DNA from: Bilabrum cf. latius
Lineage: Eukaryota
Assembly: GCA_965178125.1 (NCBI GenBank)
Contig: OZ237767.1
Span: 62,001 to 126,000, forward strand
Length of the DNA stretch: 64,000 bases
Direction of reading: 5' to 3'
Translations under genes and position numbers: made by a program
Notes under the pieces: generated by a model
Databases searched by the model: none
The model's input: only the letters and a program-made list of their open reading frames with translations
Told to the model about the DNA's origin: nothing
Part shown: piece by piece, positions 8,063-39,500 of the stretch
Layout: every line of letters starts with the position of its first letter
How positions within the stretch are numbered: position 1 is the stretch's first letter

Positions 8063-9383
8063 TCACACCTCTGGCAGATCCTCGCACATCATCAGAGGAT
8101 CCTCACGAATCTCCCCCAGCACACCCACCGCATCCCCCACAGCCACCTCCCAGCAGCCCCTCCCACCGCCATCCCGCCGCTTCAGATACCAGTCCGCATC
8201 CCGCACGCCGTGCGCCAGTGCCAGCACGCACTCTCCGTGGCCTCCAGCACATGCAGCAGTCAGCGCATTCCAGCCCGCCCCATCCGCGGCTTCGTGCCCG
8301 CCAGCTAGCCTGCCCAGCCTCAGGCGCTTGGCCAGCTCCATGGGCCTGCCCTCGCTGGCCATCTGCATCACCATGCCCGCGTCCCTGTGCGCGTCATGGG
8401 CGTGTCTCCAGTGCAGCATGTGTCTCATCCTGCGCCGGAACGGGTTGTAGTACTGCACGCCCCATAGCTCTCGAGGGTCCACACCACGGAAGAGTGCTTC
8501 GAGCAGCTTGGGAGGGTCGTAGCCGTGCTCTTCGAGGGCCTTGGTCATGACTGGAATGAACGTGCATGGCTACTGGTGCCTCTTAGCCATCATGCGAGGG
8601 ACCCAGGGAAGCTGCTCGAGCAGGAGCGACATGTGGGTGCGATCCATGCATTCAATCCACTGTCTGAGGATGATGCCGGAGTGAAGAATGGCTGCAGTTC
8701 GCCTTGAGCTCGCCCACGGGTCATTATCGAACGTATATTTGAAACCAGACTCAATGAATGCGTAATGTATATAGCTGCTGCTCTGCTCATCCTGCGCAAC
8801 AGGAACTCAATTTGGACACCGACACGCATACAACTCCTTCGCGACCGCAGTCCAGTACTTAGGCATCATACCACACTTACAGAATACATCATGAAATACT
8901 TTCTCCTGAAAAATAGCATAAGCTCGAAGGACTCCTGCTGTCCGCGAGTGAATTCGAACAAATCAGGCATATATCCATTCCATTCCTTCTCGATTCGTCC
9001 ATGATCTTCACCGTACTCGTGGACTGCCTTCGTATATGCTTTCTAGCTCTCTATACGGTGCTGTTTGTTGCACGCAAGCTCGAGCAACTCAGCAGGTGCA
9101 GCCCACACCTGCTCGGCCATCTCGAGGTTATACTAGTGCTGGTCGCCACGAATGCTCTGCGCGGTTTGCAGGCTGTCTCAATCTTGATAATAATGGTTGC
9201 TTCCAATGTGTGATTCGCAAAACTTCCCGCTGAAAAACTCACCGAATCTTGCAGTAGAAGCCGGCTTGCCGGTCGGCAGCAAACGGTTAGCAACTCAATG
9301 GACTGAGGCAATTTGTGGGCATCCCTACCGCTAGCCTCTACGATTTTAGATATGGAAGAACACCTTCTGGCAAACGGATTCAT
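8063..9383 (-). CDS. Uncharacterised intron-containing gene (family B, copy 1); 5' exon structure unresolved
   Basis: Near-identical to copies at 24521-25839 and 34729-36048. Last exon ...WVPRMMAKRHQ(TAG 8570)PCTFIPVMTKALEEHG...CEDLPEV ends at TGA; GTAAGT donor near 8879. Confidence 0.6.
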
Positions 9384-9469
9384 TTCAGTGTGGTAATGGC
9401 ACTTGCACGATACTCAGGATTGGGATACTGGAAAATTAGTGTGGTCAAAGCACACGCAACTCTTCTCGG

Positions 9470-10147
9470 ACGGAGCTTAAGCTGGCCAGCTACGGCTGGC
9501 TCGTCGACCTCGGAGCGCTCGGCGTTCGGATCGGAGGAGAAGGCAAGTGGTGTCCAGGGACTGTGAGTACACAGAAAGGGGCGGTGCGTAGTGGCGTGCG
9601 GGTCGTACCCTTTGTGGTAGACGTGTTGGGGGGGATCGGGGAGAAGTCGGGTGAGGTCCTGCAGGTGCTCGACAAGTTGCGGAAGAAGCGGTAGGAGGAC
9701 AAGGGGCGGCGGGTTTCGACTCGTCAGGCCAACGCACGCCTCTCGTGGTCTTCTGTGGCAAAGGCTCGCCTCTCCGTCGCCGCCTAGCACCAGCACGTGC
9801 GCGGGGAACAGCGTGTGTACCACATTATGTACTCACGGGTCATGCAGGACCACTCAAGGGTCCTCGATTTTGTCTCGAAGGGATCGAGGAGGGCTGCAGC
9901 GAAGGCCAAACGGGCGCTCCCAAGGGCGGTCCGGGAGGACTTTGCCAGCCTGGCTGTAGGGGCAGCCGAAAACAACAACCTCGCCGTGGCGATCGCCAAC
10001 GTCAAGGCAGGGTTGGCTCAGAACGGGCAGCAGGACGGGGTGCCAGCAGCGGGCGCCGGAGGGAACGTGAATGCTGACGCTCCCCAGGGGGAAATGGGTC
10101 CTCAGGGTGGAGCTTAGGTGGTTTAGGCCATTGCAGCTGAAGTGTGA
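9470..10147 (+). mobile_element. 3' fragment of a non-LTR retrotransposon (restriction-like endonuclease C-terminus)
   Basis: VRVVPFVVDVLGGIGEKSGEVLQVL...ARLSVAA(TAG)H resembles the F.PFVVE..G.WG..A..FL / RLSVALQ region of RLE-type elements. It is followed by an Ala/Gly-rich tail and ends at TGA 10145-10147. Confidence 0.55.
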
Positions 10148-10249
10148 AGTCTGGTAGGTCCCGGGCCCTCGTTTCAGATGTTTCTTCGTGATAGCGTGCG
10201 CTTTTGAGTTGAGTCCACAAAATATCAGGACCCCCCCGGAATGCTTGGC

Positions 10250-13894: not shown

Positions 13895-15931
13895 TTAGTA
13901 TCTGGGGAACGCGAACGGTGAGGGGCAGATCGCGATTGATGCTGCCTGCACCGTCAATGTTTCAGGGCGCCGCCACCACGCACGTCGGCGTGATAGAGTG
14001 GCCATGAATTCGTCTCTGAGTCGTGAGGTGGTAAATGCTGCCGAGGCGAGCCGAACTGTCCATGCCTTGTCGAGTCGGCGTTCTAGTCGTCTGAGCACCT
14101 TGCGCTAGGTAGAGCCAGAGGACCACGATCCAATGTTTGTCTCCACCCCGGGTATCTGACAGGAGATAGCCAGCGGTAAGGGTATTCCCAGGGAAAGTGC
14201 CTTGCGGCGAACAGTCGGAGGCTCCTCAAGGAAGGCTTGTACAGCTGCAATCTGCGGGCAAGTAGTGTCCAGCTCCGGATTCCTTGCGAGGAAGTGTCGA
14301 ATGAGACGTCTCAAAGACCACGTACTGCGGCGATCCACCTCACTCAGCTTCTCCCGGATTGTGGGTTCATTCGCGAGCCATGGGTCCGTGCTTGTCACGC
14401 TGTTGATCCACATTTTCCTGCCTGCCTCAGTGGCCTGCCATGGGATTGTTGAAGCGTTGTGCAGGGACTCTGCTTGCGTCATGCATTCCAGGACGTGTTC
14501 CTTGGTCTTGTCCGAGGCACTGCAGGCCCTAGGGTAGTATCCTGTCAGTCTTCGGAGGAGGCGACGAGAATCAGCTCCCGGCAGTCCCGTACGTACCGTT
14601 CGTGGGATGCATTTTGGACCAAACCATTGTGCATGGGAGACTCCAAGTAGGTCGCATAGTCCCGCACGCCTTCCACCTGGGTGTTTATCGAAGAACCTTG
14701 CGTACTTTTCGGCATGCGAGCTTGTCTCGTGCATTTTCGGGCACTGTCTATCCAGACTGCGATGGTGCAGCACGGCCTTGAAGCTCTCGGTATGGACCGC
14801 TCGGTCTGTCTTGGTGGTTGTCCTTAGATTGAGCACCTACAGGGCATTGCCATGTGTCTGCACGAGAATGGCTGCCATGTTTCTGAGGGGCCCACATGGA
14901 AGGTTGGTCCCCTAGATTTCGTTCGTTTCCATCAACTTCCACAGTGAGTATCTAATGAGGTCGAAGGAGTCCTCACTGATCCGGTCCACTGCTGCCCGGT
15001 ATGTAGCGAGATCCGCTCTTGTCAGGGCGCTCGGTGCCCAGATGAAGTGTCGGAGCATGGTGGCCCCAAGGAACATGGTGTCCACACGTTGTGGGCGTTC
15101 ACAGCCTATGCCGGAGGCAATGGCATGGCGGGCGGTGTCCAGAGTTTTCTGAATCCTGCTGATAGCCTTGCTGTTGTACCTTGGCTTGTAGTTGTGTGAG
15201 CCGTCCTTCTTCGTACCAGTTTGCTAGTCCTTGTAAGATTCTGGTCTTCGCACCTCGAGGGGGTCCGTGCACGCGGCCACCGCGTGGATGCCGTCTAGGG
15301 CAGTTCCCACTACTGCTTGGAAGAGGATGGTGGAGAACTGCTCGATGCTCCAGCCGCTGTTGATTGCAGCGTTGGATATTCTCTTGATGCTGGTCTCAGC
15401 CATCGCGCAGCGCCTATGCACGTGCGGCATGAGGTCAAGCAGCCGCAGTGTCTCTTGGGATCCATCGGTATGGTTCACTTCCACCGGCTTGGTAGAGATG
15501 AGGACGCCTAGGTAGTCGTATGAGAGCACCATCGGAATCTCTTCGAAGACGGGCGTGAGTTGGGCTGGGTTCAGGCCTTTCGCATTCAGTTCTTCCAGTG
15601 CCTGCTTCTGGTCCTCGATGGAGATAGCAGTCGCTCCCGAGCGGACTTGGTCCTCCGCGAGTCCGAATGAGTTGAATGCTCTACCTGTGGCAAGGATGGC
15701 CGTCTTGCTTCCCTTGCCGTTCTTGGGCTTTCGATACCCGAGCTTTCCCCCGGACAGTTCGTGATTGAGTTGTGCGGCGACCGTAGCGATAGCAGCGCCT
15801 CGCTTGTCTTGCACAATGGCTCTTTCATCATCTGCGTAGGACACCAAGGTATCTTCCGCATTGTTCGGGGGTGGTGCTCCTGATACCAGTGGCGGGATGT
15901 CCACGTCCGCCTGGATCGGGCAGGGTGTCAA
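13895..15931 (-). mobile_element. 5'-truncated non-LTR retrotransposon reverse transcriptase ORF
   Basis: SYADD catalytic motif, YDYLGVLI motif and a C-terminal C..KEHVLEC knuckle-like motif. Three track ORFs share one frame and are joined by four TAGs; the frame ends at TAA 13895-13897. Truncated at the duplication breakpoint near 15930. Confidence 0.85.
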
Positions 15932-16059
15932 CTGTTTGCTCGCGAACGCTCAGCTAACCAATTTGTAAGGCTATATTTCATGATTTTAGAATTACAGTTT
16001 TCTGTTGCGACCATTGATGATCATTAACCAACAGGCAGCAAACACAACTGAACACCACC

Positions 16060-19000
16060 ATGAAGTACCCAACTCCGATGATTCTGGCTATTTTGTGTCT
16101 GGCAACTGCTGTGGCAACTAGCGATGGGGCTCGCCACAATCGCCAATTAAACAAGCTCACGCGGATTGAAAGCCAGCACGAGGCCACAATACTCCATGCT
16201 GATGCGGGCTCAACAACATTGAGCTAGTTTGGTGGCTTCGATTTCGAGAACTATCGCAATGTTCGATTCGATGCTATGGACATTGCTGTTACATCAGACG
16301 GTGTAGTCCTTTCTGGCCCAGTCTCCTTCACTGGCGGACGAGACGCAAAATGCGTCATCAGCGCCATTGCAACATCCGCGAATGACGTTTCGAAAGCTGC
16401 TACTATACTGCTATAGACAGTTAAACGCCTGGATCAGGCAACTGGTGCAGTGGGACTGGCCTCGTCGACACAGTCCTCTCAAATTACCACAGCACCCGGT
16501 AAGTCCCACTTGAACAGTCATTGTCAAAACTGGCACCAACACTCACCCCACTATGTAACGACAGATACAAATAAGGATAAATTGAATTAAGTCAAAAGTA
16601 TCGCCTTGGAATTTGCTCGCAGGCACTCAAAGTGCGACCGTACTTGGCGCAGCTCGACGAGCCGTGCAAGAAGGCCACCCTGACCATGATGCCACAATGA
16701 TTGTGGTCGAGGCCATCAACCAGTGCATTCAAGCCAGATCTCATGCCGCGCTTCAAGTTGGACCGGTAGATCCGATGGCTGTGCATGGTGCCCCCGGCCC
16801 GACAGGGACCAGCACTCTCGCAGCGCGAGCAGCCGGTCCTTCGAGTCGCAGCGTCGATGAGGAGTCGAGTGGCAAGGGTCCTATGGCCGCTGCAGGATCT
16901 GTAGACCCTGTATCCCGCGGTGATGCTCCCTCTTACAGCCCCACTGAAGGAGCAGGTGGCCAAGGTGGATCTGCAGGGCCGCAGAGTCAATCTTTGTACC
17001 GGCCTGGTTTCTCGGATGCAGTGGGAACAGGGCGGCCGGGTGAGGACCAGGACAAAGGTGCATCTCATGGATCTGGCCCACAGCATGCTAGCAGGGGCAT
17101 GTCCGTGGACTGGACTGGTCCTGACATCCGGATCGACGAAGCGCGCCGTGATGGGTCTCCTGGTTCCGGTTCTTCTGGTGAGACGAGACAGAGCAGTACG
17201 TCGCTTGGATCTGGCGCCCACACCGTTTCGCTACAACCCGGTCATGGTCAACCTCCGAGCGTACCAGGAGGCGACCCACCAGCTGTGCATGTGAGTCATG
17301 GTGCGTCAGGGGGGACAAGCAGGGCGGACATGGTTTCACAGGCCAACCGGGTTACGGCGATGCGGCTGACCATCTCCAAGCTGCGGCATAGCAAGTAGAC
17401 CAATGGCAACACTAGTACCAGCCTCAGCAAGGCACCCCTCCTGCTCCGGGTGCGAATGTACCCCCAAATGCGCCCCCACCTACCGAATGGGACTCGATAC
17501 CGGCATCACAAATGACGCGGCGCACCATTGGGGCAGCGCTCGCAGACGCGGGCCAAGCGGCTAGGAACGGTCGAGTCGACAGGTCGACCTCGCCAGACCT
17601 GCGCCAATGGGGCACAGCCACTTGGCTTGATGAAGATAACAAGGCACCTGATCTCAAGGAATGGTCTTCGCTTGTACCCCAGGAAAGCACCGAATCTTCA
17701 TTCGAGAATCTTGCGGATGCACCTGACGCTGTGCAGGACCTGCAGCACGCGCTTGACGGGTCTGATACGAGCTCTGAGGCCTCACAGGACAGCGTGCACT
17801 CAGACCATGCAAGGGGTTCGCATTCAGGCGAGCGGCTGAAATCTGGGCGAGGAACCGGAGAGGTAGATGCGATGGACTAAAACTCTCAAAGAGCTCCTCA
17901 GACGGATGGGTCTGCACCTGCGACCCTGCACCCGGTTGTCCTGAGAGGAAACAGCATCGCGACTCAGGCCACCGCAGCTCAGCAGCATGCATCCGGTCAA
18001 CAGTCACCAGACTGGGGCAGTGCACCGGACCTGAGCATGGGCATGGGCATGGGCATGCCAGGTCTTCCTGGACTCAACTCCGAGAAGGAGGGGGAGGAGG
18101 AGGACAAGGACTCATCTGAGGCCATGCAAGACTAGAGCTCCGCGTCGACAAGGCCTATTTCAGGCGGCAGCACCTAGCAAGCAGCTGCCCAAAGCTCATT
18201 ACCAGCACAGGCTGTGCTGGGATCCGCACGAATGGGGGTGCTTCCACCAAGCAATCTCTCGCACCAGGCCAAATCAAGCAGCAGTGATCACGGTTGGCTC
18301 GTGCAGACCCAATCGCAGGGGCGGGGTCCTGACGATACCAACTCTCCTCCTGAGGGCGAAGCTCGCGTAGGATCCGACCCTGGCCAGGCCCCCTCAAGCG
18401 ATCATCGCGAGGTCGAAGCTCAAGAGGAGCACGAAGGATCCGGCCCCGACCAGACCCAGACCCACTCCCGCTCCCATCGTGAGGGCGAAGCTCAAGAGAA
18501 GCACGAAGGATCCGGCCCTGGCCAGGCCCCCTCAAGCGATCATCGTGACGGCGAAGCTCAAGAGGAGCACGAAGGATCCGGCCCCGACCAGACCCAGACC
18601 CACTCCCGCTCCCATCGTGAGGGCGAAGCTCAAGAGAAGCACGAAGGATCCGGCCCTGGCCAGGCCCCCTCAAGCGATCATCGTGACGGCGAAGCTCAAG
18701 AGGAGCACGAAGGATCCGGCCCCGACCAGACCCAGACCCACTCCCGCTCCCATCGTGAGGGCGAAGCTCAAGAGGAGCACGAAGGATCCGGCCCTGGCCA
18801 GGCCCCCTCAAGCGATCATCGTGACGGCGAAGCTCAAGAGGAGCACGAAGGATCCGGCCCCGACCAGACCCAGACCCACTCCCTCTCCCATCGTGAGGGC
18901 GAAGCTCAAGAGGAGCACGAAGGATCCGGCCCCGACCAGGCCCCCTCAAGCGATCATCGTGAGGGCGAAGCTCAAGAGGAGCACGAAGGATCCGGCCCCG

Positions 19001-19782
19001 ACCAGACCCAGACCCACTCCCTCTCCCATCGTGACGGCGAAGCTCAAGACGAGCACGAAGGATCCGGCCCCGACCAGACCCAGACCCACTCCCGCTCCCA
19101 TCGTGAGGGCGAAGCTCAAGAGGAGCACGAAGGATCCGGCCCCGACCAGACCCAGACCCACTCCCTCTCCCATCGTGAGGGCGAAGCTCAAGAGGAGCAC
19201 GAAGGATCCGGCCCCGACCAGACCCAGACCCACTCCCGCTCCCATCGTGAGGGCGAAGCTCAAGAGGAGCACGAAGGATCCGGCCCCGACCAGGCCCCCT
19301 CAAGCGATCATCGTGAGGGCGAAGTTCAAGAGGAGCACGAAGGATCCGGCCCCGACCAGACCCAGACCCACTCCCTCTCCCATCGTGACGGCGAAGCTCA
19401 AGACGAGCACGAAGGATCCGGCCCCGACCAGGCCCCCTCAAGCGATCATCGTGAGGGCGAAGCTCAAGAGGAGCACGAAGGATCCGGCCCCGACCAGACC
19501 CAGACCCACTCCCTCTCCCATCGTGAGGGCGAAGCTCAAGACGAGCACGAAGGATCCGGCCCCGACCAGACCCAGACCCACTCCCGCTCCCATCGTGACG
19601 GCGAAGCTCAAGAGGAGCACGAAGGATCCGGCCGTGACCAGACCCAGACCCACTCCCGCTCCCATCGTGAGGGCGAAGTTCAAGAGGAGCACGAAGGATC
19701 TGACCCTGGCCAGGTGCATTCTCCTGGTGGGTTGCGAGGTAGGCATGGGCGCCCCCGCGATGATCGTAAAGACGGTCAATGA
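16060..19782 (+). pseudogene. Secreted low-complexity His/Glu/Asp repeat protein (family C, copy 1); 1-nt frameshift near 17341
   Basis: Signal peptide MKYPTPMILAILCLATAVATS, intron 16499-16622 and in-frame TAGs. It reads cacaggcc where copy 2 reads cacagggcc (a real deletion or a sequencing error). Ends at TGA. Confidence 0.6.
18346..19713 (+). repeat. Coding tandem array of about 20 units of 66 or 72 nt
   Basis: Units encode HREGEAQEEHEGSGPDQTQTHSRS (24 aa) or HRDGEAQEEHEGSGPGQAPSSD (22 aa). Confidence 0.95.
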
Positions 19783-21435
19783 TGGGGCTCAATTGATCCA
19801 CATATGATCCATACGGATATCACTCTCCCGATTAGGCTTCTTGGAGCTGGCTGCGAGTTGCCTCGCTTTGGTCGGCTGGACTTCAGTGGCCTGATTTTAT
19901 GCTGCTTGCTTTGCTATAGGATCAGAAGGAGTATCGCTAATCTACCACAGTGCCACAGACTGGTCGATTCCTCCCTCACCCCTCATTCCTCATATACCAC
20001 CTATCATCCAAGGATCCCTCAGAATGGCGGTATTCTGTCAGTCCAATCTCAGCGCATACACCATCAGAATTTGTTTGATATGTCTTGCATCCGGGATCGC
20101 ATTTATTCCCCCGCCCTTGGTCTGCTCCGTGCGGTACTGGGCATGCAGCCTAAAGTCACTCGTGTTTTGCCTGGCCTTTGCACGACGCCTAGAGACCCAC
20201 CTCATACCTCGATGTAGGTCCGTTGACATCGTCGCATGTGCCGGTTTCACCGATGCTGTCTCCACCTCGTTTTGGTCGGAGTCTGCAGAATGCCTTGGGT
20301 TGTACCAGTCAAATGATTCGTAGTCACCAAATCCAGTTTTTGCGTAGTATGATAGGCGCGACATTCGCAACAAGCAGACTCTAGGTTTTGGCAGTGGCTG
20401 GCCCAAAACGCCTTTAGCCGTTTTCCCCTCTCATATCCATTGACCCAGGCAGATTTAATGCCTCTTCCTTTCGAAAACACTCACGGTTCTACGGTAGCTA
20501 CACAGGGACTTTTTGTTTCAGTCACATAATGTCACAAGTGACTGGCGGTATCCGCACTCCGGCATTGACGGATAACAGGCAGATCCGCAGAGTTCGCTTC
20601 ACCTCGCAGGCTCTGCACCCGCATTTATGGTGTAGATCTAGGGCTACTCGACTGCACAATAGCATTCGCTCGAGCCTGAGCTCGCCGGTTCCACTAACTT
20701 GGTGAACAGCATGGTCGCATGAAGCCTCGTTGCCTGGCAGTAGTCCTGCAATCTATCGACCACCAGCTGTGTTGTTAACCCAAGCACTTCATACTCGCGG
20801 GTTCAAGGCCTGCTATTGGGCCAGCTGTATCGCGGCTCGGTGTCGATTGGGGCAATATTGTGAGGGCCATATGGTGGTAAAAGGGCCTATGACCACTTGT
20901 GCTAGCTTTACGATTCAGCTGACATCAAGGTTTCCGAAAGTGCATAAACACTTTTTAGACAGAGTACTCGATGATAGTCTTTAAGTTGCGAGTCAACTTG
21001 CGACCAGGGTGCCGGATCCGGAATCCGGATCTATTCATCACGGAAGCTCACCTGAGGTGAGGCAGGGGGTGAGAGGAGCTCAGGGGTAGTTGTGCGCTTG
21101 TGGTGTCCATCAGCACATCCCGGATTGGTAGAACCAGACGCTGGAGCTTTTTGGCTAGATAGCTTGGAAAAAAATAATATCCATTACGGTATAAAAGGAT
21201 GCGTACGTACACGCAGCATCAACACATTAAGTATCTGGATTATGCACCCATTTCACCGGGCGAAACTATCGTTAGATACGGTAGGGATTCAAAACCAACA
21301 CGCAAAAACAAGCCGCTGTTTGGAGTAAGTAACCGCTACTGGAAGGGTCTCCATGATGACTTGATGTAGGCAAAAGTGCAGCACCTGCTCGGTACCGTTC
21401 ATGAATCGCAAACCCTTGTGTCACGCACTTGGACC

Positions 21436-23670
21436 TTACCCTTGGAACGAGTCCATCATCTCGCCGACATCTTGCTGCCCCCCTTGCAGCCCAGATTTCC
21501 TCGCGACTGCCAGCACCCCGTCGTCCGATGGGCTGTCCGAGACTGGCACGGACACTTTGGTCTCCACCGTGGTGTTTGTTCCCCGGGGAACAGTGGCAGG
21601 GTCAAGCTCTGCCACCACCCGCACGACGATCGGCCCCCCCGAGGGGCACGCGACCCCTGTTCCCTGGCCCGCGATGAGCGTCCTGGCCCCCGAGTCCACG
21701 TCGATCTGCATGGATAGCGCGCGGTTGGGGGTCGTGCAGTCGGCCGTGACCTGCACCAGCACCCTCGCCAGCCCGCCGTAGGTCCCGCAGGACTCGCTGC
21801 CCGGCTGGCACTTGCAGGCCGGGTCTCCGCTGCCCACGCCCAGCACGCGCCCGGGCCCCGACTCGATCGTGGCGCTGACGTTGGCAACCGCCGTGCTCCT
21901 CAAGCTGCCCTGCCCGTCGGCGAGCATGACCCGGAGCAAGGCAGTGTCCTCCCCGTCAAGTAGCAGGGCACTGCCGGTCCCCGAGGCGGGGCTGGGAACG
22001 TCTGTAATACCCATAAGTAGCGTGTCATTTCCAGAAGGCGCGAGGACGGTGTGCCGGGACTCCACGGTGCTGCCGTCCCCGGCCAGGCCCAGCACAGTGA
22101 GGTTCGCGATCGTGTTGCCCGGTGCCATGGGCCTGCCCCCACCGACCCAGGGGCCCTGTGCGCTGGGCCCGCACTGGTTCTGCTGCACGTTGCCGGCCCA
22201 GCAGCCGTGCGTGTCGGACCACTGCCACACGGTGCAGCCGGGAAGCTCGCAGCACTGCGTCCTGCACGTGGCCGTGCCGTTGGCGTCGTCGATCTTCTTC
22301 AGGCCGTGGCACTGCACGTTCGACAGGTTCGTAGGGAACACGCACTGGCTTGGGACTGGCTCGACAGGCACATGCCAGCTGGACATCTGCACCTAGTCTG
22401 GGTACGTCTGGCTGGCCGTGGGCAGCTTGCCCATGCTCTTCCCGTCTGCGAGGAGCTCCGCGATGGCACTCGTGCTGATGGCCCGGACGTTTGCCACGAC
22501 TCCTCCACTGATTGACCCGGGCTCTATGGCGAGCTGGTCGGGCAGGTCCAAGACCCTGGTCAAGTTAGCGGGAGGCTGCAGCGGCTTGCCCGGGTCCGTG
22601 CTAGGCCGCTTGTGGAGCCAGTTGGCCCTGTACCAGAACGCGTGCGGCTTGGGCATCCCTGCGATGTCGAACTGGCCGTACGGACTGCTCACCTGCGGCC
22701 AGCTGTGAGACTCGCCGTAGTAATCGAAGCTGGTCCAGACCCCGAGGGAGCCGAGCACGTAGGGAAGCAGGCCAGGCGAGTTCTGGTCCTCGATGCAGTC
22801 GGGCAGCATGCGGCTCCCCGACGGCAATCTCTGGCTGGTGCAGGAACAGCACTCTGAGAGCACCTAAGGAACACCGGGGTGGTCCTGGTGGAAGCTCGCG
22901 AAGGTCTTGTTCCCCGAATGGGAGTGTCCCTGGACGTCGATTCCGTCCGTGTTTCCGTTGGCAGCAGTGAGCAGGTGAGGGGCAAGCGCCTTGGAGACGT
23001 TCCTGAAGGAGAGGCCCGTGGTTGGCTCGCCGCTCCCGCACGCGTACTCGTTGCAGTACCCGGCCATCACGATGGAGGGCCTGTTCCTGTCTCTCTTCAC
23101 CATGGCGTGCATGCCAGGGAGGTAGCTGAACCCCTGCACCCCGAACGGCGCCTCATTGCTTGACGGCCCGAACACTCCATAGTCCCTGTGCTCGTCCCAC
23201 ATGACCATCCCGATCCTGTCGGTCAGCTGGTACAGCTCCCGCCGGTAGGGGTTGTGTGAATTCCTCCAGATGTTGGCGCCCATGGCCCTGGCCTGCTGCA
23301 CCCTGTACAGCTCGAATCGGGGGGACAAGGCCGTCCCCAGCTGTGTGAAGGAGTTGTGGTGGGAGAACCCCCTGAGCTTGAAAGCCTCCCCGTTCAGGAC
23401 CAGGCCCTCCGTCAGAGAGGCAGACACAGTCCTGAACCCGACCTCCTCCGAGTACATGTCCATCGCGCCGGCGTCCTCAGGCCGTTGAGACGCGGGCAAC
23501 CCACCCATGGTGGTGGAGGGTACGACTGTGGCGTTCACTCTGTACAGCCCGAGCGTGTCGCGCACTGACCAGGCCTTCAGCACGCCGGGCGCGAGTGACA
23601 CGTTCGCGCGGAGCACGGTTGCCATGGGTCGCCAGCCGTCCAGCACCGCAACCGATCCGGCTGCGTTCGA
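21436..23670 (-). pseudogene. 5'-truncated duplicate of the GH2 gene
   Basis: Nearly identical to 36511-38741; homology stops at ...ggctgcgttcg near 23669. In-frame TAGs at 22864 and 22393. Confidence 0.85.
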
Positions 23671-23673
23671 TTT

Positions 23674-24122: not shown

Positions 24123-24520
24123 CTTGTCTAAGACGTAGACCTAATGCCTTGTCACAATCAAATTGCAGGCAACTGTTGGCTTCAATTGATACTAAGTATC
24201 AAACAGAACCTGCTTAGTGTCTCGGAATCATATAGATCAATGCTTCTTGTGCAGAACAGCACTTTCTGCCACATGATGACGATTGCAGACCACCACTCTA
24301 AACCTGTGCATTCCAACTCCACTACAACAGCCGAGTCGGCTTGAATCAGTCTATTCTGCAGAAAAGAAGCAGGCATTCAGCTTGCTTTGCGCCACCATCT
24401 TGGCTTCAGTAGCAACTACAGTTGTATCAAGCCGGACCATTGGACCGCTCTAGGCGATCCCTCTCATGAGAAAGCGACATGTGGGCTATGCATCACAACA
24501 TCAATCGATCGATGCCCGTA

Positions 24521-25839
24521 TCACACCTCTGGCAGATCCTCGCACATCATCAGAGGATCCTCACGAATCTCCCCCAGCACACCCACCGCATCCCCAACAG
24601 CCACCTCCCAGCAGCTCCTCCCACCGCCATCCCGCCGCTTCAGGTACCAGTCCGCATCCCGCACGCCGTGCGCCAGTGCTAGCACGCACCCCCCGTGACC
24701 TCCAGCACACGCAGCTGTCAGCGCGTTCCAGCCCGCCCCATCCACGGCTTCGTGCCCGCCAGCTAGCCTGCCCAGCCTCAGGCGCTTGGCTAGCTCCATG
24801 GGCCTGCCCTCGCTGGCCATCTGCATCACCAAGCCCGCGTCCCTATGCGCGTCATGGGCGTGTCTCCAGTGCAGCATGTGTCTCATCCTGCGCCGGAACG
24901 GGTTGTAGTACTGCACTCCCCATAGCTCTCGAGGGTCCACATCGCGGAAGAGCGCTTCGAGCAACTTGGGAGGGTCGTAGCCGTGCTCTTCGAGGGCCTT
25001 GGTCATGACTGGAATGAATGTGCATGGCTGCTGGTGCCTCTTAGCCATCATGCGAGGGACCCAGGGAAGCTGCTCGAGCAGGAGCGACATGTGGGTGCGA
25101 CTCTTGAATTCATGCCACTGTCCGAGGATGATGCCGGAGTGAAGAATGGCTGCAGTTCGCCTTGAGCTCGCCCACGGGTCATTATCGAACGTATATTTGA
25201 AACCTGACTCAACGAATGCGTCATGTATATAGCTGCTGCTCTGCTTTTCCTGCGCAACAAACACTCAATTTGGAACCGACACGCATTCAACTCCTTCGCG
25301 ACCGCAGTCCAGTACTTTAGCATCACACCATACTTACAGAATACATCATGAAATACTTTCTTCTGAAAAATAGCATGAGCTCGAAGGACTCCTGCTGTCC
25401 GCGAGTGAATTCGAACAAGTCAGGCATATATCCATCCCATTCCTTCTCGATTCGTCCACGATCTTCACCGTACTCTTGGACTGCCTTCATATATGCCTTC
25501 TAGCTCTCTATGAGGTGCTGTTTGTTGCACGCAAGCTCGAGCAACTCAGCAGGTGCAGCCCACACCTGCTCGGCCATCATGAGATTATACTAGTACTGGT
25601 CCCCACGAATGCTCTGCGCGGTCTACAGGCAGTCTCAATCTCGATAATAGTGGATGTTTGCATTGTACATAATGCAAACTTTCCGCTGATAAACATACCG
25701 AATCTTGCAGTAGAAGCCGGCTTGCCGGTCGGCAGCAAACGATTAGCAACTCAATGGACTGAGGCAATTTGTGGGCATCCCTACCGCTAGCCTCAACAAT
25801 GTTTGAAATGGAAGAACACCTTTTGGCAAACGGATTCAT
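24521..25839 (-). CDS. Family B copy 2
   Basis: Paralog of 8063-9383; CAG at 25028-25030 where copy 1 has TAG; TGA stop. Confidence 0.55.
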
Positions 25840-29101: not shown

Positions 29102-29369
29102 GTTATGGTCCAATGGCTTCGGGTGCAGGTGCAGATATGGCCCACCCGGCGTCGCGCTCAGGCGTGATGGCCCGGCTCTAGCAGTTCTGGCGTGGCATAT
29201 TCACGACGTTGGCCTTGAAAGAACTTGGTCCGACAGGGTCAACTGTTCGTTCGCGAACGTTCAGCTAACTAGTTTGTAAGGCGATATTTCATGATTATAG
29301 AATTACAGTTTTCTGTTGCGACCTTGATGATCATTGACCAACAGGCAGCAAACACAACTGAGCATTGCC

Positions 29370-32300
29370 ATGAAGTACCCAACTCCGATGATTCTGGCTA
29401 CTTTGTGTGTGGCAACTGCTGTAGCCACTAGCGATGGGGCTCGCCACAATCGCCAATTGAACAAGCTCACGCGGATTGAAAGCAAGCAGATGACCAAAAT
29501 GATCCACGCTGATGCGGGCTCAACAACCTAGAGTGGGCTTGATGGTTTTCGATTCGATGAGTATCGCAATGTTAGATTCGATGCCATGGAGATTGCTATT
29601 ACATCAGAAGGTGTAGTCCTATCTGGCCCCGTTTCCTTCATTGGCGGACGAGACGCAAAATGCGTCATCAGCGCTATTACAACATCCGCGAATGACGTTT
29701 ATAGAGCTGCTACTATACTACTATAGACAGTTAAGCGCCTGGATCAGGCAACTGGTGCAGTGGGACTGGCCTCGTCGACACAATCTTCTCAAATTACCAC
29801 AGCACCCGGTAAGTCCTACTTGAATAGTAATTGTCAAAACTGGCACCAACACTCACCCCACTATGTAACGTCAGATACAAATAAGGATAACTTGAATTGA
29901 GGCATAACTCTCACCTTGAAATTTGCTCGCAGGCACTCAAAGTGCGACCGTACTTGGCGCAGCTCGACGAGCCGTGCAAGAAGGCCACCCTGACCATGAT
30001 GCCACAATGATTGTGGTCGAGGCCATCAACCAGTGCATTCAATCCAGATCTCATGCCGCGCTTCAAGTTGGACCAGCAGATCCGATGGCTATGCATGGTG
30101 CCCCCGGCCCGACAGGGACCAGCACTCTCGCAGCGCGAGCAGCCGGTCCTTCGAGTCGCAGCGTCGATGAGGAGTCGAGTGGCAAGGGTCCTATGGCCGC
30201 TGCAGGATCTGTAGACCCTGTATCCCGCGGTGATGCTCCCTCTTACAGCCCCACTGAAGGAGCAGGTGGCCAAGGTGGATCTGCAGGGCCGCAGAGTCAA
30301 TCTTTCTACCGGCCTGGTTTCTCGGATGCAGTGGGAACAGGGCGGCCGGGTGAGGACCAGGACAAAGGTGCATCTCATGGATCTGGCACACAGCATGCTA
30401 GCAGGGGCATGTCCGTGGACTGGACTGGTCCTGACATCCGGATCGACGAAGCGCGCCGTGATGGGTCTCCTGGTTCCGGTTCTTCTGGTGAGACGAGACA
30501 GAGCAGTACGTCGCTTGGATCTGGCGCCCACACCGTTTCGCTACAACCCGGTCATGGTCAACCTCCGAGCGTACCAGGAGGCGACCCACCAGCTGTGCAT
30601 GCGAGTCATGGTGCGTCAGGGGGGACAAGCAGGGCGGACATGGTTTCACAGGGCCAACCGGGTTACGGCGATGCGGCTGACCATCTCCAAGCTGCGGCAT
30701 AGCAAGTAGACCAATGGCAACACTAGTACCAGCCTCAGCAAGGCACCCCTCCTGCTCCGGGTGCGAATGTACCCCCAAATGCGCCCCCACCTACCGAATG
30801 GGACTCGACACCGGCATCACAAATGACGCGGCGTACCATTGGGGCAGCGCTCGCAGACGCGGGCCAAGCGGCTCGGAACGGTCGAGTCGACAGGTCGACC
30901 TCGCCAGACCTGCGCCAATGGGGCACAGCCACTTGGCTTGATGAAGATAACAAGGCACCTGATCTCAAGGAATGGTCTTCGCTTGTACCCCAGGAAAGCA
31001 CCGAATCTTCATTCGAGAATCTTGCAGATGCACCTGACGCCGTGCAGGACCTCCAGCACGCGCTTGACGGGTCTGATACGAGCTCTGAGGACTCACAGGA
31101 GAGCGTGCACTCAGACCATGCAGGTGATTCGCATTCAGGCGAGCGGCTCAAATCTGGGCGTGGAGCCGGAGAGGTAGATGCGATGGACTAAAGCTCTCAA
31201 AGAGCTCCTCAGACGGATGGGTCTGCACCTGCGACCCTGCACCCGGTTGTCCTGAGAGGAAATAGCGTCCCAAATCAGGCCACCGCAGCTGAGCAGCGTG
31301 CATCCGGTCAACACTCACCAGACTGGGGTAGTGCACCGGACCTGAACCTGGGCATGGGCATGGGCATGCCAGGTCTTCCTGGGCTCAACTCCGAGAAGGA
31401 GGAGGAGGAGGAGGAGGACTCATCTGAGGCCATGCAAGATTAGAGCTCCGCGTCAACAGGGCCTATTCCAGGAGGCAGCATCTAGCAAGAAGCCAACCAA
31501 GGCCCACTGCAAGCACAGCCTGTGCTGGGATCATCGCGCATGGGGGTGCTTACACCAAGCAACCTCTGGCGCCAGGACGAATCAAGCGGCAGTGGTCACG
31601 GTTGGCTCGTGCAGACCCAATCACGGAGGCGGCGTCCTAGCGATACCAACTCTCCTCCTGAGGGCGAAGCTCAAGACGAGCACGAAGGATCCGGACTACA
31701 CCAGACCCAGGCCCCCTCAAGCTCACATCGTGATGGTGAAGCTCAAGACGAGCACGAAGGATCCGGACCAGACCAGACCCAGACCCACTCCCGCTCCCAT
31801 CGTGATGGCGAAGCTCAAGACGAGCACGAAGGATCCGGACCAGACCAGACCCAGACCCACTCCCGCTCCCATCGTGATGGTGAAGCTCAAGACGAGCACG
31901 AAGGATCCGGACTACACCAGACCCAGGCCCCCTCAAGCTCACATCGTGATGGTGAAGCTCAAGACGAGCACGAAGGATCTGGCCCCGGCCAGGCCCCCTC
32001 AAGCTCCCATCGTGATGGCGAAGCTCAAGACGAGCACGAAGGATCCGGACTACACCAGACCCAGGCCCCCTCAAGCTCCCATCGTGATGGTGAAGCTCAA
32101 GACGAGTACGAAGGATCCGGACTACACCAGACCCAGGCCCCCTCAAGCTCCCATCGTGATGGTGAAGCTCAAGACGAGCACGAAGGATCTGGCCCCGGCC
32201 AGGCCCCCTCAAGCTCCCATCGTGATGGTGAATCTCAAGACGAGCACGAAGGATCTGGCCCCGGCCAGGCCCCCTCAAGCTCCCATCGTGATGGTGAATC

Positions 32301-32646
32301 TCAAGACGAGCACGAAGGATCCGGACCAGACCAGACCCAGGCCCCCTCAAGCTCCCATCGTGATGGTGAAGCTCAAGACGAGCACGAAGGATCTGGCCCC
32401 GGCCAGGCCCCCTCAAGCTCCCATCGTGATGGTGAATCTCAAGACGAGCACGAAGGATCTGGCCCCGGCCAGGCCCCCTCAAGCTCCCATCGTGATGGTG
32501 AAGCTCAAGACGAGCACGAAGGATCCGGACTACACCAGACCCAGGCCCCCTCAAGCTCCCATCGTGATGGAGAACAGCATGGTCGCATGAAGCCTCGTTG
32601 CCTGGCAGTAGTCCTGCTATCTATCGACCACCAGCTGTGTTGTTAA
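29370..32646 (+). CDS. Secreted His/acidic repeat protein (family C, copy 2)
   Basis: Signal peptide, the same first intron as copy 1 (29809-29932), TAGs in a Gln-rich context (AAA*QVDQWQH*YQPQQG) and a probable 39-nt intron near 31174-31212. The 3' end is altered by a deletion of about 1 kb relative to copy 1. Confidence 0.65.
31660..32570 (+). repeat. Coding tandem array of about 13 units of 66 or 72 nt
   Basis: HRDGEAQDEHEGSGLHQTQAPSSS and HRDGEAQDEHEGSGPGQAPSSS units. Confidence 0.95.
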
Positions 32647-33348
32647 CCCAAGCACTTCATACTCGCAGGTTAAAGGCCTGCTATTCAGCCAGCTGTGTCG
32701 CGGCTCGGTGTCGATTGGGGCAGTTTTGTGAGGGCCATTTGGTGGTATTAGGGCCTATGACCATTTATGCTAGTTTTACGATTCAGCTGACATCAAGGTT
32801 TCCGAAAGTTCATAAACACGTTTTAGACAGAGTACTCGATGATAGTCTATAAGTTGCGAGTCAACTTGCGACCAGGGTGCCGGATCTGGCCCAAAGATCA
32901 TCTGGGATCCGGATTCCGGATCCATTCACCGAGGCTTTCCAGATCTCACCTGAGATGAGGCAGGGGATGAGAGGAGCTCAAGGGTAGTTGCGCGCTTGTG
33001 GTGTCCATCAGCACATTGGTGGAACCAGACGCTGGAGCTAGCTTGGAAAAAAATAAAAAATAGGATGCGTACACGCAGCATCCGGATCAACACATAAGTA
33101 TCTGGATTATGCACCCGTTTCACCGGGCGAAACTATCGTTGGATACGATAGGGATTCAAAACCAACACGCAAAAACAAAATAAAAAACGGCCACCTCCCA
33201 GCGCCGCTGTTTGGAGTAAGTAACCGCTACTGGAAGGGTCTCCATGGTGAATTGAAGTAGGCAAAAGTGCAGCACCTGCTCGGCACCGTTCATGAATCGC
33301 AAACCCTTATGTCACGCACAAATCAGCGCTGATCGCTCGACTTGGACC

Positions 33349-33790
33349 TTACCCTTGGAACGAGTCCATCATCTCGCCGACATCTTGCTGCCCCCCTTGG
33401 AGCCCAGATTTCCTCGCAACTGCCAGCACCCCGTCGTCCGATGGGCTGTCCGAGACTGGCACGGACACCTTGGTCACCACCGTGGTGTTTGTTCCCCGGG
33501 GAATAGTGGCAGGGTCAAGCTGTGCCACCACCCGCACGACGATCGGCCCCCCAGAGGGGCAAGGGACCCCTGTTCCCTGGCCCGCGATGAGCGTCCTGGC
33601 CCCCGAGTCCACGTCGATCTGCTTGGATAGCGCGCGGTTGGGGGTCGTACAGTCGGCCGTGACCTGCACCAGCACCCTCGCCAGCCCGCCGTAGGTCCCG
33701 CAGGACTCGCTGCCCGGCTGACACTTGCAGGCCGGGTCTCCGCTGCCGACGCCCAGCACGCGCCCGGGCCCCGACTCGATCGTGGCGCTG
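33349..33790 (-). pseudogene. 3' stub of the GH2 gene (third copy)
   Basis: Matches the last 440 nt or so of the GH2 CDS; homology breaks at ...cgtggcgctga near 33790. Confidence 0.85.
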
Positions 33791-34728
33791 AGAAAAGGCT
33801 ACAGAATCAGAGCCAGAGACCCAAGCAGCAGCAAGTGTATCAACACCAACGGCTATCAACACGTTCACCGGCGAGGAGGATCCCGACCAATCGCGGTCTT
33901 CGCACACTAACCCTCCAGCGGGCCAGGTAAAACTGGAGGAGTGCACAACCACCACAAATCTAGGCTACGCCGAGATCGACAATATCAAGGCCCGGAGAGG
34001 GGCCAGTGGCAGTTGGGCTGCCGCTGCAGGAGAGCCACTGGAAGCTGATGCGGATGGGTACATCAAGGGGGCGGAGGGCGCTGCTTGGGGCAGGTCTCCA
34101 GAAGGCGAGTCAGACCAGCAGAACGGGGATGGGGCAGGAAGGTCGGGGCGTCCTACCCGCATGGCCCGATAGAGACGGGAATGGGGAAATGGGTGCAATG
34201 GACTGGTGGAGTCCGCACTCAATGGTCATCACGACACCTCCTGCACAGCAGATGGTGCCCATGACTCGGCTAAACTATTAATCTCTACGAGCCGAGTTCA
34301 TGGAGCTGTCGTCTTGCCTGTGTTGGAGAACGCGCGAGGCTTCCGGCGGATGTAAAACTGGTAACAGCTTGCACAGAGCCGGAATCGGAAAGGAGCTGGC
34401 ATACCGATGGTCGAAAAGCCCTACTCTGGGTATCGAGCCCGAGGCTTCAGGTGTTTCAGTTGCGCCACAGCCTCACCACCTGATGACGATGGCAGACCAC
34501 CACTCTCACCTGTACTTTCAAACTCCACTACAACAGCCGAGTCGGCTTGAATCAGTCTATTCTGCAGAAACGAAGCAGGCATTCAGCTTGCTTTGCGCCA
34601 CCATCTTGGCTTCAGTAGCAACTACAGTTGTATCAAGCCGGACCATTGGACAGCTCTAGGCGATCCCTCTCACATGAGAAAGCGACACGTGGGCTATGCA
34701 TCACAACATCAATCGATCGATGCCCGTA

Positions 34729-36048
34729 TCACACCTCTGGCAGATCCTCGCACATCATCAGAGGATCCTCACGAATCTCCCCCAGCACACCCACCGCATC
34801 CCCAACAGCCACCTCCCAGCAGCCCCTCCCACCGCCATCCCGCCGCTTCAGGTACCAGTCCGCATCCCGCACGCCGTGCGCCAGTGCCAGCACGCACTCC
34901 CCGTGACCTCTAGCACACGCAGCTGTCAGCGCGTTCCAGCCCGCCCCATCCACGGCTTCGTGCCCGCCAGCTAGCCTGCCCAGCCTCAGGCGCTTGGCCA
35001 GCTCCATGGGCCTGCCCTCGCTGGCCATCTGCATCACCAAGCCTGCATCCCTATGCGCGTCATGGGCGTGTCTCCAGTGCAGCATGTGTCTCATCCTGCG
35101 CCGGAACGGGTTGTAGTACTGCACGCCCCATAGCTCTCGAGGGTCCACATCGCGGAAGAGCGCTTCGAGCAGCTTGGGAGGGTCGTAGCCATGCTCTTCG
35201 AGCGCCTTGGTCATGACTGGAATGAATGTGCATGGCTGCTGGTGCCTCTTAGCCATCATGCGAGGGACCCAGGGAAGCTGCTCGAGCAGCAGCGACATGT
35301 GGGTGCGATTCTTGAATTCATGCCACTGTCTGAGGATGATGCCGGAGTGAAGAATGGCTGCAGTTCGCCTTGAGCTCGCCCACGGGTCATTATCGAACGT
35401 ATATTTGAAACCTGACTCAATGAATGCGTAATGTATGTAGCTGCTGCTCTGCTTTTCCTGCGCAACAGGAACTCAATTTGGACACCGACACGCATACGAC
35501 TCCTTCGCGACCGCAGTCCAGTACTTAGGCATCATTCCATACTTACAGAATACATCATGAAATACTTTCTTCTGAAAAATAGCATGAGCTCGAAGGACTC
35601 CTGCTGTCCGCGAGTGAATTCGAACAAGTCAGGCATATATCCATTCCATTCCTTCTCGACTCGTCCATGATCTTCACCGTAATCTTGGCATGCCTTCATG
35701 TACGCCTTCTAGCTCTCTATGAGGTGCTGTTTGTTGCACGCAAGCTCGAGCAACTCAGCAGGTGCAGCCCACACCTGCTCGGCCATCTCGAGATTATACT
35801 AGTATTGGTCGCCACGAACGCTCTGCGCGGTCTGCAGGCAGTCTCAATCACGATAATAGTGGTTGTTTGCATTGTACATAATGCAAACTTTCCGTTGAAA
35901 AACTCACCGAATCTTGCAGTAGAAGCCGGCTTGCCGGTCGGCAGCAAACGGTTAGCAACTCAATGGACTGAGGCAATTTGTGGGCATCCCTACCGCTAGC
36001 CTCTACAATGTTTGATATGAAAGAACACCTTCTGGCAAACGGATTCAT
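34729..36048 (-). CDS. Family B copy 3
   Basis: Paralog of 8063-9383 and 24521-25839; TGA stop. Confidence 0.55.
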
Positions 36049-36510
36049 TTCAGTGTGGTAGTGGCACTTGCATGATCCGGATACTCGAGAAATCAGTGTG
36101 GTCAAAGCACACGCAATTATGGTTTATTCTCGGAAGCAATGCTCGGCTGACTCACTGAGCCTTTCACCGGAGCTCAAAGACTGTTGTGCGCTTGTGGTGT
36201 GCATCAGCACATTGGTGGAACTAGACGCCGGAGCACCAACACATTAAGTATCCTGGGTCTGTGCACCCATTTCACCTGGCGAAACTATCGCTGGATTCGA
36301 TCACTGATGGCATGATCAGATTCAGTATCGGATGCCAGCCAAGTTACCAACAAGCAAAAACAAAACAAAAAACGGCCACCTCCCAGCGCCGCTGTTTGGA
36401 GTAAGTAACCGCTACTGTAGGGTCTCCATGGTGAATTGAAGTAGGCAAAAGTACAGCACCTGCTCGGTACCGTTCATGAATCGCAAACCCTTATGTCACG
36501 CACTTGGACC

Positions 36511-39500
36511 TTATCCCAGGAACGAGTCCATCATCTCGCCGACATCTTGCTGTCCCCCTTGGAGCCCAGATTTCCTCGCAACTGCCAGCACCCCATCATC
36601 CGATGGGCTGTCCGAGACTGGCACGGACACCTTAGTCACCACCGTGGTGTTTGTTCCCCGGGGAACAGTGGCAGGGTCAAGCTCTGCCACCACCCGCACG
36701 ACGATCGGCCCCCCCGAGGGGCACGCGACCCCTGTTCCCTGGCCCGCGATGAGCGTCCTGGCCCCCGAGTCCACGTCGATCTGCTTGGATAGCGCGCGGT
36801 TGGGGGTCGTGCAGTCGGCCGTGACCTGCACCAGCACCCTCGCCAGCCCGCCGTAGGTCCCGCAGGACTCGCTGCCCGGCTGGCACTTGCAGGCCGGGTC
36901 TCCGCTGCCGACGCCCAGCACGCGCCCGGGCCCCGACTCGATCGTGGCGCTGACGTTGGCAACCGCCGTGCTCCTCAAGCTGCCCTGCCCGTCGGCGAGC
37001 ATGACCCGGAGCAGGGCAGTGTCCTCTCCATCGAGGAGCAGGGCGGTGCCGGTCCCCGAGGCGGGGCTGGGGACGTCTGTAATACCCATAAGTAGCGTGT
37101 CATTTCCAGAAGGCGCGAGGACGGTGTGCCGTGACTCCACGGTGCTGCCGTCCCCGGCCAGACCCAGCACGGTGAGGTTCGCGATCGAGTTGCCCGGTGC
37201 CATGGGCCTGCCGCCACCGACCCAGGGGCCCTGTGCGCTGGGCCCGCACTGGTTCTGCTGCACATTGCCGGCCCAGCAGCCGTGCGTGTCGGACCACTGC
37301 CACACGGTGCAGCCGGGCAGCTCGCAGCACTGCGTCCTGCACGTGGCCGTGCCGTTGGCGTCGTCGATCTTCTTCAGGCCGTGGCACTGCACGTTCGACA
37401 GGTTCGTAGGGAACACGCACTGGCTTGGGACTGGCTCGACAGGCACATGCCAGCTGGACATCTGCACCTAGTCTGGGTACGTCTGGCTGGCCGTGGGCAG
37501 CTTGCCCATGCTCTTCCCGTCTGCGAGGAGCTCGGCGAAGGCACTCGTGCTGATGGCCCGGACGTTTGCCACGACTCCTCCACTGATTGACCCGGGCTCG
37601 ATGGCGAGCTAGTCAGGCAGATCCAGGACCCTGGTCAAGTTGGCAGCAGGCTGCAGCGGCTTGCCCGGGTCCGTGCTGGGCCGCTTGTGGAGCCAGTTGG
37701 CCCTGTACCAGAACGCGTGCGGCTTGGGCATCCCTGCGATGTCGAACTGGCCGTACGGACTGCTCACCTGCGGCCAGCTGTGAGACTCGCCGTAGTAATC
37801 GAAGCTGGTCCAGACCCCGAGGGAGCCGAGCACGTAGGGAAGCAGGCCAGGCGAGTTCTGGTCCTCGATGCAGTCTGGCAGCATGCGGCTCCCAGACGGC
37901 AATCTCTGGCTGGTGCAGGAGCAGCACTCTGAAAGCACCTGGGGAACACCGGGGTGGTCCTGATGGAAGCTCGCGAAGGTCTTGTTCCCCGAATGGGAGT
38001 GTCCCTGGACGTCGATTCCGTCCGTGTTTCCGTTGGCAGCAGTGAGCAGGTGAGGGGCAAGCGCCTTGGAGACGTTCCTGAAGGAGAGGCCCGTGGTTGG
38101 CTGGCCGCTTCCGCACGCGTACTCGTTGCAGTACCCGGCCATCACGATGGAGGGCCTGTTCCTGTCTCTCTTCACCATGGCGTGCATGCCGGGGAGGTAG
38201 CTGAACCCCTGCACCCCGAACGGCGCCTCGCTGCTTGACGGCCCGAACACTCCATAGTCCCTGTGCTCGTCCCACATGACCATTCCGATCCTGTCGGTCA
38301 GCTGGTACAGCTCACGCCGGTAGGGGTTGTGTGAGTTCCTCCAGATGTTGGCGCCCATGGCCCTGGCCTGCTGCACCCTGTACAGCTCGAAGCGGGGGGA
38401 CAAGGCCGTCCCCAGCTGCGTGAAGGAGTTGTGGTGGGAGAATCCCCTGAGCTTGAAGGCCTCCCCGTTCAGGACCAGGCCCTCCGTCAAAGAGGCAGAC
38501 ACGGTCCTGAACCCGACCTCCTCCGAGTACATGTCCATCGCGCCGGCGTCCTCAGGCCGTTGAGACGCGGGCAGCCCACCGGTGGTGGAAGGTGCGACTG
38601 TGGCGTTGACTAGGTACAGCCCGACCGTGTCGCGCACGGACCAGGCCTTCAGCACGCCGGGCGCGAGTGACACGTTCGCGCGGAGCACAGTTGTCATGGG
38701 TCGCCAGCCGTCCAGCACCGCAATCGATCCGGCTGCGTTCGGCTGCGACGGCGGCACGGCGACACTGGTGCTGAAGCTGCCGAGGAGGGGCCCGTCCACG
38801 CTGGAGACAGACAGCGTGACGTGCACTTCCGCGGGGTCGCTGCCGTGGTTCTCCAGCTCAACTGACACGGGAACCACCACGTCCTGAGCACTCGTCACGC
38901 CGTGATCACTCGTCACATCGAGCTCGGGAGAGGCGAAGAGGCCTCCCTCCACCACGTGCACCGGGGGGGCCCTCACCAGCTGCACACCGCGGTACATGCC
39001 GGCGCCTTCGTACCAGTGCCCGGAGCCGAAGGATCCATCCACGCGGACGGCCAGCACGTTGGGCTGGGAAGCGCCGTACCGCAGTGCAGAGCAGTTGTCC
39101 AGCCGGACGGTGAACTCCGAGTACCCGCCCTCCTGGGAGCCGTGCTGGCCGAGGTACTGCCCGTTCAGCCAGATCTACGAGAGGTGAAATATGCCTTCGA
39201 ATCGGATGAATATCGTGCTGTTGAACCCTGCAATGGACGGTCGCCATTCCTCGGGCATGACGAACTGCTTTCTGTACCACCCGGTCGAGTTGCGAGGCAC
39301 AAACCCGTGATGGGTGTCAGTGATGTCGGCGAACGTAGAATTCCGAATCAGGAAATCGTGCGGAGCATCGACGCTTTCCCATGTTTCCGCCTCTGGGACG
39401 TCTTCCTGAGCCCACGGGTAGTCGGTTCGGATCGGCTGCTGGGCCTGCTCGATGCTTCGCGTGCCGCCGAACGGAAAATCTTGGTTGCCGGTCGTGTCCA

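Follow-up and report, generated by a model that had tools for sequence, protein, structure and literature searches.

To our knowledge, UAA and UAG almost always shift together, and few nuclear genomes uncouple them; most of the uncoupled nuclear cases that we know of are uncultured or transcriptome-only, with the tRNA not in hand. The closest described counterpart of the code reported here is that of Iotanema spirale, which has the same table (UAG as glutamine, UAA and UGA as stops), with UAG uncoupled from UAA (PMC5304391). In the present work, in-frame TAG codons were followed from a 64,000-nucleotide stretch of Bilabrum cf. latius (the window; positions 62,001 to 126,000 of contig OZ237767.1 in GCA_965178125.1, or C33:62001-126000) into the rest of the assembly (48.6 Mb, 111 contigs). 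Bilabrum is placed in Bicosoecida, Stramenopiles. The sequence data show UAG in this genome to be a sense codon that stands at glutamine positions, persists in spliced transcripts and closes none of the examined genes, and the nuclear code is very probably NCBI table 15, in which UAG is glutamine and only UAA and UGA serve as stops.

Iotanema belongs to Fornicata, an unrelated lineage, and has the eRF1 substitution T32G and UAA as its main stop (PMC5304391), in contrast to Bilabrum, in which T32 is kept, other positions are changed and TGA dominates (31 of 38 gene ends). The tRNA(CUA) of Iotanema is predicted only, whereas the gene was identified in Bilabrum. In the ciliates Hartmannula sinica, Trochilia petrani and Protocruzia tuzeti, UAG is glutamine and UAA still a stop (PMC11687900); these are alveolates, and a suppressor tRNA was not found in the first two. 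UAG alone has also been reassigned to a different amino acid, namely leucine in the rhizarian exLh and in phyllopharyngean metagenome-assembled genomes, and serine in Scotinosphaera. The eRF1 of exLh carries L69A, and the same position is encoded by TAG (Gln) in Bilabrum; with T32G in Iotanema, L69A in exLh (PMC5304391) and T32 kept here, the eRF1 route differs. The UAR = Gln codes (table 6; many ciliates, hexamitins, ulvophytes and Amoeboaphelidium) share with Bilabrum a tRNA(CUA) that reads UAG as glutamine, but in these UAA is glutamine as well; code 6 does not fit Bilabrum, in which 7 of 38 genes end in UAA and no tRNA(UUA) turned up in the tRNA list or the pattern search described below. 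Code-15 phages (crAss-like) likewise use TAG as glutamine, with bacterial hosts and release factors, in contrast to a eukaryotic nuclear genome with introns (PMC9523058).

The case list of PMC11687900 contains no occurrence of stramenopile, bicosoecid or Bilabrum. A literature search that included passages of PMC11412368, PMC10553269 and PMC12153298, with most subscription journals outside its scope, returned no stramenopile nuclear reassignment, and the main-text passages of a Halocafeteria preprint (10.64898/2026.06.25.734631) do not mention a code. Nine papers in the literature searched name Bilabrum; of the eight listed, seven deal with channelrhodopsins and one is a review. Apparently, the change in Bilabrum is an independent origin of code 15 and the first in Stramenopiles. 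Bilabrum may have been linked to a non-standard code before; an earlier report of the change is less likely than not.

The 28 dynein AAA_6 matches in the genome contain 20 internal stops, all of which are TAG, with no TAA or TGA. Under TAG = Gln, 19 dynein frames are open for 2,403–3,333 codons and hold 271 TAG among 61,977 codons; these frames were picked as open, so that the absence of TAA and TGA from them is by construction, and 18 fill nearly all of the 10 kb fetched. For decoding, a profile was made from 70 outside dynein proteins (of 91 with at least 3,600 residues; 80 of 150 dynein homologues were left out), with TAG masked as X and alignment columns of low confidence left out. The preliminary description of the window had asked for the codons opposite TAG to be tabulated, with mainly leucine, tyrosine or glutamate codons as the outcome that would count against glutamine. 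Over 164 TAG sites, the log-likelihood was +112.6 nats for glutamine, 71.7 nats above glutamate (+40.9), with lysine at +34.5, tyrosine at −95.6 and leucine at −133.2; the same test decoded 61 of 61 sense codons correctly. Gene by gene, glutamine was favored in 17 of the 19 dyneins. In columns at least 70% conserved among the dynein paralogs, glutamine stands opposite TAG in 22 of 32 cases, compared to 184 of 262 for CAG and 19 of 27 for CAA.

Rab and Ras GTPases carry a catalytic glutamine in switch II, which is encoded in 18 genes by TAG (8), CAG (6) or CAA (4). The 65 Ras matches contain three TAA/TGA codons, one of which (L098) coincides with the match's opening codon. As a side observation on these domains (L090–L119), TAG occupies 8 of 18 catalytic switch-II glutamine codons versus about 21 of 121 other glutamine codons. 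Only one eRF1 was found in the genome, another match reading as Pelota-like, and its gene contains two in-frame TAG codons. The first corresponds to human position 44, which is glutamine in 115 of 117 homologues, and the second to human position 69, which is leucine in 111 and glutamine in 4.

None of the 38 gene ends examined is TAG (31 TGA, 7 TAA), which puts terminal TAG use at or below about 8%. The ends comprise 17 of the 19 dyneins (15 TGA, two TAA; L136 and L140 were left out), the 20 of 30 Ras loci that end in a prenylation motif (16 followed by TGA and four by TAA; the other ten have no terminal motif or an intron at the end) and eRF1 (TAA). UAA and UGA are absent in frame from the dynein matches and used as stops at these ends. 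At one Ras locus (L118), a TAG lies 11 codons ahead of the stop, upstream of the terminal prenylation motif.

The Bilabrum eRF1 carries R28K, G29A, N30D and S60V and retains GTS, T32, E55, NIKS, S70 and YxCxxxF. Among the homologues listed, which are the top matches of a word search rather than a sample of close kin (three fused ones of 120 were left out), A29 and D30 occur in none of 110 and V60 in none of 117. The eRF1 of a named bicosoecid (P0164) is canonical. Because T32, E55, S70 and YxCxxxF are kept, UAG recognition may partly remain, as would be expected of an ambiguous code of the Condylostoma or Blastocrithidia kind, in which UAG is glutamine internally and a stop at some ends. Such a code is nevertheless quite unlikely here, given the 38 ends without TAG (a small sample), the TAG ahead of the prenylation motif in L118, and the lack of selection for a leaky context, with no excess of C at +4 after TAG (81 versus 83 expected).

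That UAG stays in the mature message is supported by transcripts. The genome is nuclear DNA with spliceosomal introns, and in spliced contigs from runs X1–X3 (studies P1 and P2), the three GT..AG introns of eRF1 are skipped and both TAG codons are unchanged, in contrast to contigs of run X4, in which the introns are kept. The first TAG lies at an exon edge, which would suit its removal by splicing, or alternatively by U-to-C editing; however, the joint yields TAG with either cut, no other letters are seen in the spliced contigs of the two studies, the cognate tRNA is present, and in a published Bilabrum channelrhodopsin transcript a single glutamine codon occurs as both a TAG and a CAG allele (PMC9733931). 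Post-transcriptional removal of TAG is therefore extremely unlikely. The authors of that study labeled the TAG allele "premature stop-codon, pseudo" (2022; PMC9733931 supplement), and neither "genetic code" nor "UAG" appears anywhere in its text or supplements.

One nuclear tRNA(CUA) gene was found (C23:907607-907679), in single copy and with a cloverleaf fold. A pattern search returned six matches (control, five), tRNA(CUA) being the sole YUA tRNA among them; for the tRNA list, 63 of 780 candidates were scored. The same tRNA(CUA) is found on a metagenome contig, where its flanking sequence differs and the stem pair 6:67 has undergone a compensatory change. The D and anticodon arms are of the glutamine type, with the D stem and G73 as in the genome's own tRNA-Gln(UUG), and look-alikes on viral contigs that share the D arm and the 5′ anticodon stem are Gln(UUG) in 24 of 24 cases, one of them also having C1:G72. 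In the acceptor stem, 12 of 14 bases, the C1:G72 pair among them, agree with the tRNA-Tyr of this genome. In a comparison set that left out mitochondrial tRNAs, tRNA-Ser, tRNA-Cys and one Met variant, the other 24 tRNAs match this stem at 6 of 14 bases at most; the metagenome copy agrees with tRNA-Tyr at 10 of 14, and an identity of 12 was reached by 2 of 284 unrelated tRNA pairs. Over the whole molecule, 41 of 60 aligned positions are identical to tRNA-Tyr versus 36 to Gln-CUG, a value of 41 being found in 9 of 284 unrelated pairs. A tyrosine origin of the entire tRNA, considered on this identity, is weakened by the 24 of 24 glutamine-type D and anticodon arms, and a glutamine origin is probable, ahead of a tyrosine or mosaic one.

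In E. coli, an amber tRNA-Tyr that carries G73 reportedly inserts glutamine. Eukaryotic tyrosine identity involves A73, C1-G72, G34 and U35, the last of which is also central for GlnRS (PMC9976931); the apparent signals for glutamine charging of tRNA(CUA) are mixed. The tyrosine-like acceptor stem with C1:G72, together with leucine at position 69 of most eRF1 homologues, would suit a residue other than glutamine at UAG (leucine as in exLh, glutamate or tyrosine) or a glutamine/tyrosine mixture. This is very unlikely in view of the log-likelihoods, the TAG codons at 8 of 18 catalytic Rab glutamines and, for tyrosine, the absence from tRNA(CUA) of A73 and G34, which are among the listed determinants. 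Leucine, as in a code 16-like table, was rejected on the −133 nats and on the variable loop of tRNA(CUA), which is 5 nt with no long arm.

Further observations concern the translation apparatus itself. The GlnRS (L120, on C33) has a glycine versus the arginine of human GlnRS in the anticodon-binding region; a comparison with the human enzyme by itself supports no conclusion. Both tRNA-Gln(CUG) genes (L037, L038) contain an A4-A69 acceptor mismatch, and the two glutamine isoacceptors of this genome have only 33 of 60 positions in common. Several near-identical, low-GC tRNA-Met-like genes (L022, L032, L036, L044–L046) resemble a tRNA-Pro(UGG) that lies next to one of them, which is odd for an initiator tRNA.

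Within the window, the preliminary description had taken three TAG/CAG swaps between paralogs to identify the residue as glutamine. The swaps are found where it placed them, all on the minus strand, in copies of a GH2 glycoside hydrolase and of a second family (family B):

36511..39876, minus strand: full-length GH2 glycoside hydrolase of 1121 residues (PF02837, PF02836, PF18565), with five in-frame TAG (39841, 39517, 39175, 37609, 37468) and a TAA end
21436..23669, minus strand: 5′-truncated GH2 without the N-terminal sugar-binding domain, with TAG at 22864 and 22393 and a TAA end
33088..33791, minus strand: third GH2 fragment, limited to the 3′ end and including no TAG site
22864..22866, minus strand: TAG of the truncated GH2; the full-length copy (37939) and the outgroup L205 both have CAG
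37609..37611, minus strand: TAG of the full-length GH2; the truncated copy (22534) and L205 both have CAG
37468..37470, minus strand: TAG of the full-length GH2, TAG also in the truncated copy (22393), CAG in L205
8063..8806, minus strand: family B copy 1, with TAG at 8570 and a weak ankyrin-like match below the cut-off
24521..25264, minus strand: family B copy 2, with CAG at 25028
34729..35472, minus strand: family B copy 3, with CAG at 35236

The two GH2 copies are 96.6% identical (21312-23669 versus 36388-38741), the left copy ceasing to match at 23669, and their common TAG (22393/37468) had escaped the preliminary description. The swap rate is comparable to that of synonymous C/T differences, as had been proposed: within the GH2 pair, TAG/CAG exchanges occur at 2 of 31 YAG sites, and synonymous C/T differences at 8 of 130 two-fold NNY sites; at the first position of leucine YTR codons the figure is 4 of 31. 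Exchange in both directions did not hold up. A further GH2 paralog, the outgroup L205, carries CAG at each of the three sites, and the simplest account of every TAG is thus a change from CAG. Since this pattern is also expected of C-to-T decay, the swaps alone are weak evidence; the glutamine assignment itself stands on the genome-wide data.

That the TAG codons are nonsense mutations in dead or dying copies would accord with the common CAG origin of the three GH2 sites, the truncation of one GH2 copy and the reading of the Bilabrum TAG allele as a pseudogene in PMC9733931. The preliminary description named confinement of the swaps to dead copies as a refuting outcome; instead, TAG, unaccompanied by TAA or TGA, is present in essential genes, namely the only eRF1 found, each of the 19 dyneins and many Rabs, and eRF1 is spliced with TAG retained. 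Ratios of non-synonymous to synonymous change (dN/dS) downstream of TAG codons are 0.04–0.10. With TAG as glutamine, synonymous differences in the collinear GH2 stretch number 52 and non-synonymous ones 9 (dN/dS 0.053), and in the part downstream of the shared TAG the numbers are 23 and 5 (dN/dS 0.073); family B downstream of its TAG gives 0.078–0.098. Family B copies on other contigs (L186–188, L194) also have TAG at a conserved glutamine. Decay is excluded by the low dN/dS together with the evidence from other contigs, and was rejected on the dynein, Rab and eRF1 data; we regard it as having almost no chance of being correct. Family B itself is multicopy, with 46 matches, in tandem arrays and also on C32, C13, C22 and C40; its proteins are conserved in the C-terminal part and variable in the N-terminal part.

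Several points weigh against the assignment of table 15. The 38 ends limit terminal TAG no further than about 8%. Two dynein genes prefer aspartate (one site) or glutamate (11 sites), by less than 1 nat, and the second eRF1 TAG falls at a position where leucine prevails. The tRNA list is incomplete, and the search pattern misses intron-bearing tRNAs; the acceptor stem of tRNA(CUA) is tyrosine-like. The eRF1 changes may merely reflect a fast-evolving lineage. Runs X1–X3 were taken as RNA by guess and from the splice joints, and their contigs drop rare variants and could hide partial editing.

If table 15 is correct, the single-copy tRNA(CUA), most likely derived from tRNA-Gln, would be charged by GlnRS and would read UAG with no wobble onto UAA, and eRF1 would have lost most UAG recognition via substitutions within TASNIKS and next to the GTS loop. 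CAG-to-TAG transitions would then have multiplied TAG like any other synonymous codon, and the paralog swaps in the window would be a record of them. In the dyneins, TAG makes up 10.7% of YAG, close to the share of TTG in YTG (16.2%) and of TAT in TAY (14.7%), and declines as GC content at third codon positions rises (rho −0.84, 19 dynein genes); together with the +4 context, this fits complete reassignment and near-neutral CAG-to-TAG drift. Dynein TAG codons (L065–L083) follow G less often than expected (99 versus 148) and precede A more often (76 versus 52). We would guess that the rarity after G reflects avoidance of the splice-donor-like GTAG.

A more elaborate reading combines the first stramenopile nuclear code change with a re-identified or mosaic tRNA(CUA), a switch from TyrRS to GlnRS, and loss of UAG alone by eRF1. 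The acceptor stem and the 5-nt variable loop would come from tRNA-Tyr, with the D arm, G73 and A37 of the glutamine type, and eRF1 would drop UAG alone via R28K/G29A/N30D, S60V and L69Q with T32 kept. The two UAG codons of eRF1 could provide feedback if residual UAG termination persists. Taken as a whole, this combination is rather unlikely.

For Bilabrum, the genome is chromosome-scale, both the tRNA gene and eRF1 have been identified, and a standard-looking eRF1 of another bicosoecid (P0164) can be set beside them. For amber suppression in eukaryotic cells, the desired release factor is one that ignores UAG while still recognizing UAA and UGA, so that the four or five changes in the Bilabrum eRF1 are directly testable. 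Standard-code annotation cuts short or discards genes in this genome, and the channelrhodopsin allele has already been filed as a pseudogene (PMC9733931 supplement).

Other TAG-containing frames in the window, in which no tRNA genes were found over its 64 kb, are as follows:

3451..7503, minus strand: 1350-codon frame with 18 TAG, zero internal TAA or TGA and no Pfam match
30007..31191, plus strand: open reading frame with a glutamine-rich tract, TAG at 30700 and 30724, no Pfam match
42928..46134, plus strand: kinase fusion with a PfkB domain, two TAG, TGA end
46360..50052, minus strand: 1230-codon frame with 12 TAG including 49900, TAA end, no Pfam match
51699..54833, plus strand: SET-domain protein with one TAG, TGA end

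The TAG at 49900, earlier placed next to a likely signal peptide, is indeed present on the minus strand, and those of the glutamine-rich tract lie on the plus strand and recur in a paralogous block (17389, 17413). Mosaic segmental duplications (7224-9468, 15927-19257, 20700-25923, 29238-36953) interleave GH2 and family B with frames that resemble degraded retroelements (13895-15949) and with long tandem repeats (18342-19714, 31650-32574). An exact look-up of 10 proteins (eight with TAG as glutamine, two TAG-free) in a collection of 15 billion gave no matches, and their absence allows no inference on public annotation of the code.

The organism is a marine flagellate that feeds on bacteria. By eye, one rhodopsin of the assembly (L057) differs from the published B1ChR2 of Bilabrum sp. 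at 6 of about 250 residues, and another (L061) is close to B1ChR1 of Bilabrum sp. (PMC9733931 supplement). This near identity to Bilabrum-assigned rhodopsins supports placement of the genome in the genus, the published assignment resting on an 18S common to contaminated assemblies (PMC9733931). Further rhodopsins are L058 and L059 (both on C13), L054, L055, L056 and L060, two of which carry long fused C-terminal regions, sensor-kinase-like in look. Besides an 18S array on C12, a second, distinct 18S gene lies on a small contig (C95:6099-7900, L047). The C12 array looks stramenopile-like and the C95 gene dinoflagellate-like; the latter probably stems from a co-cultured organism within the assembly. 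An AT-rich contig with clustered tRNAs (C111; L001, L016) is the apparent mitochondrion, and its tRNA(UCA) suggests that UGA encodes tryptophan there.

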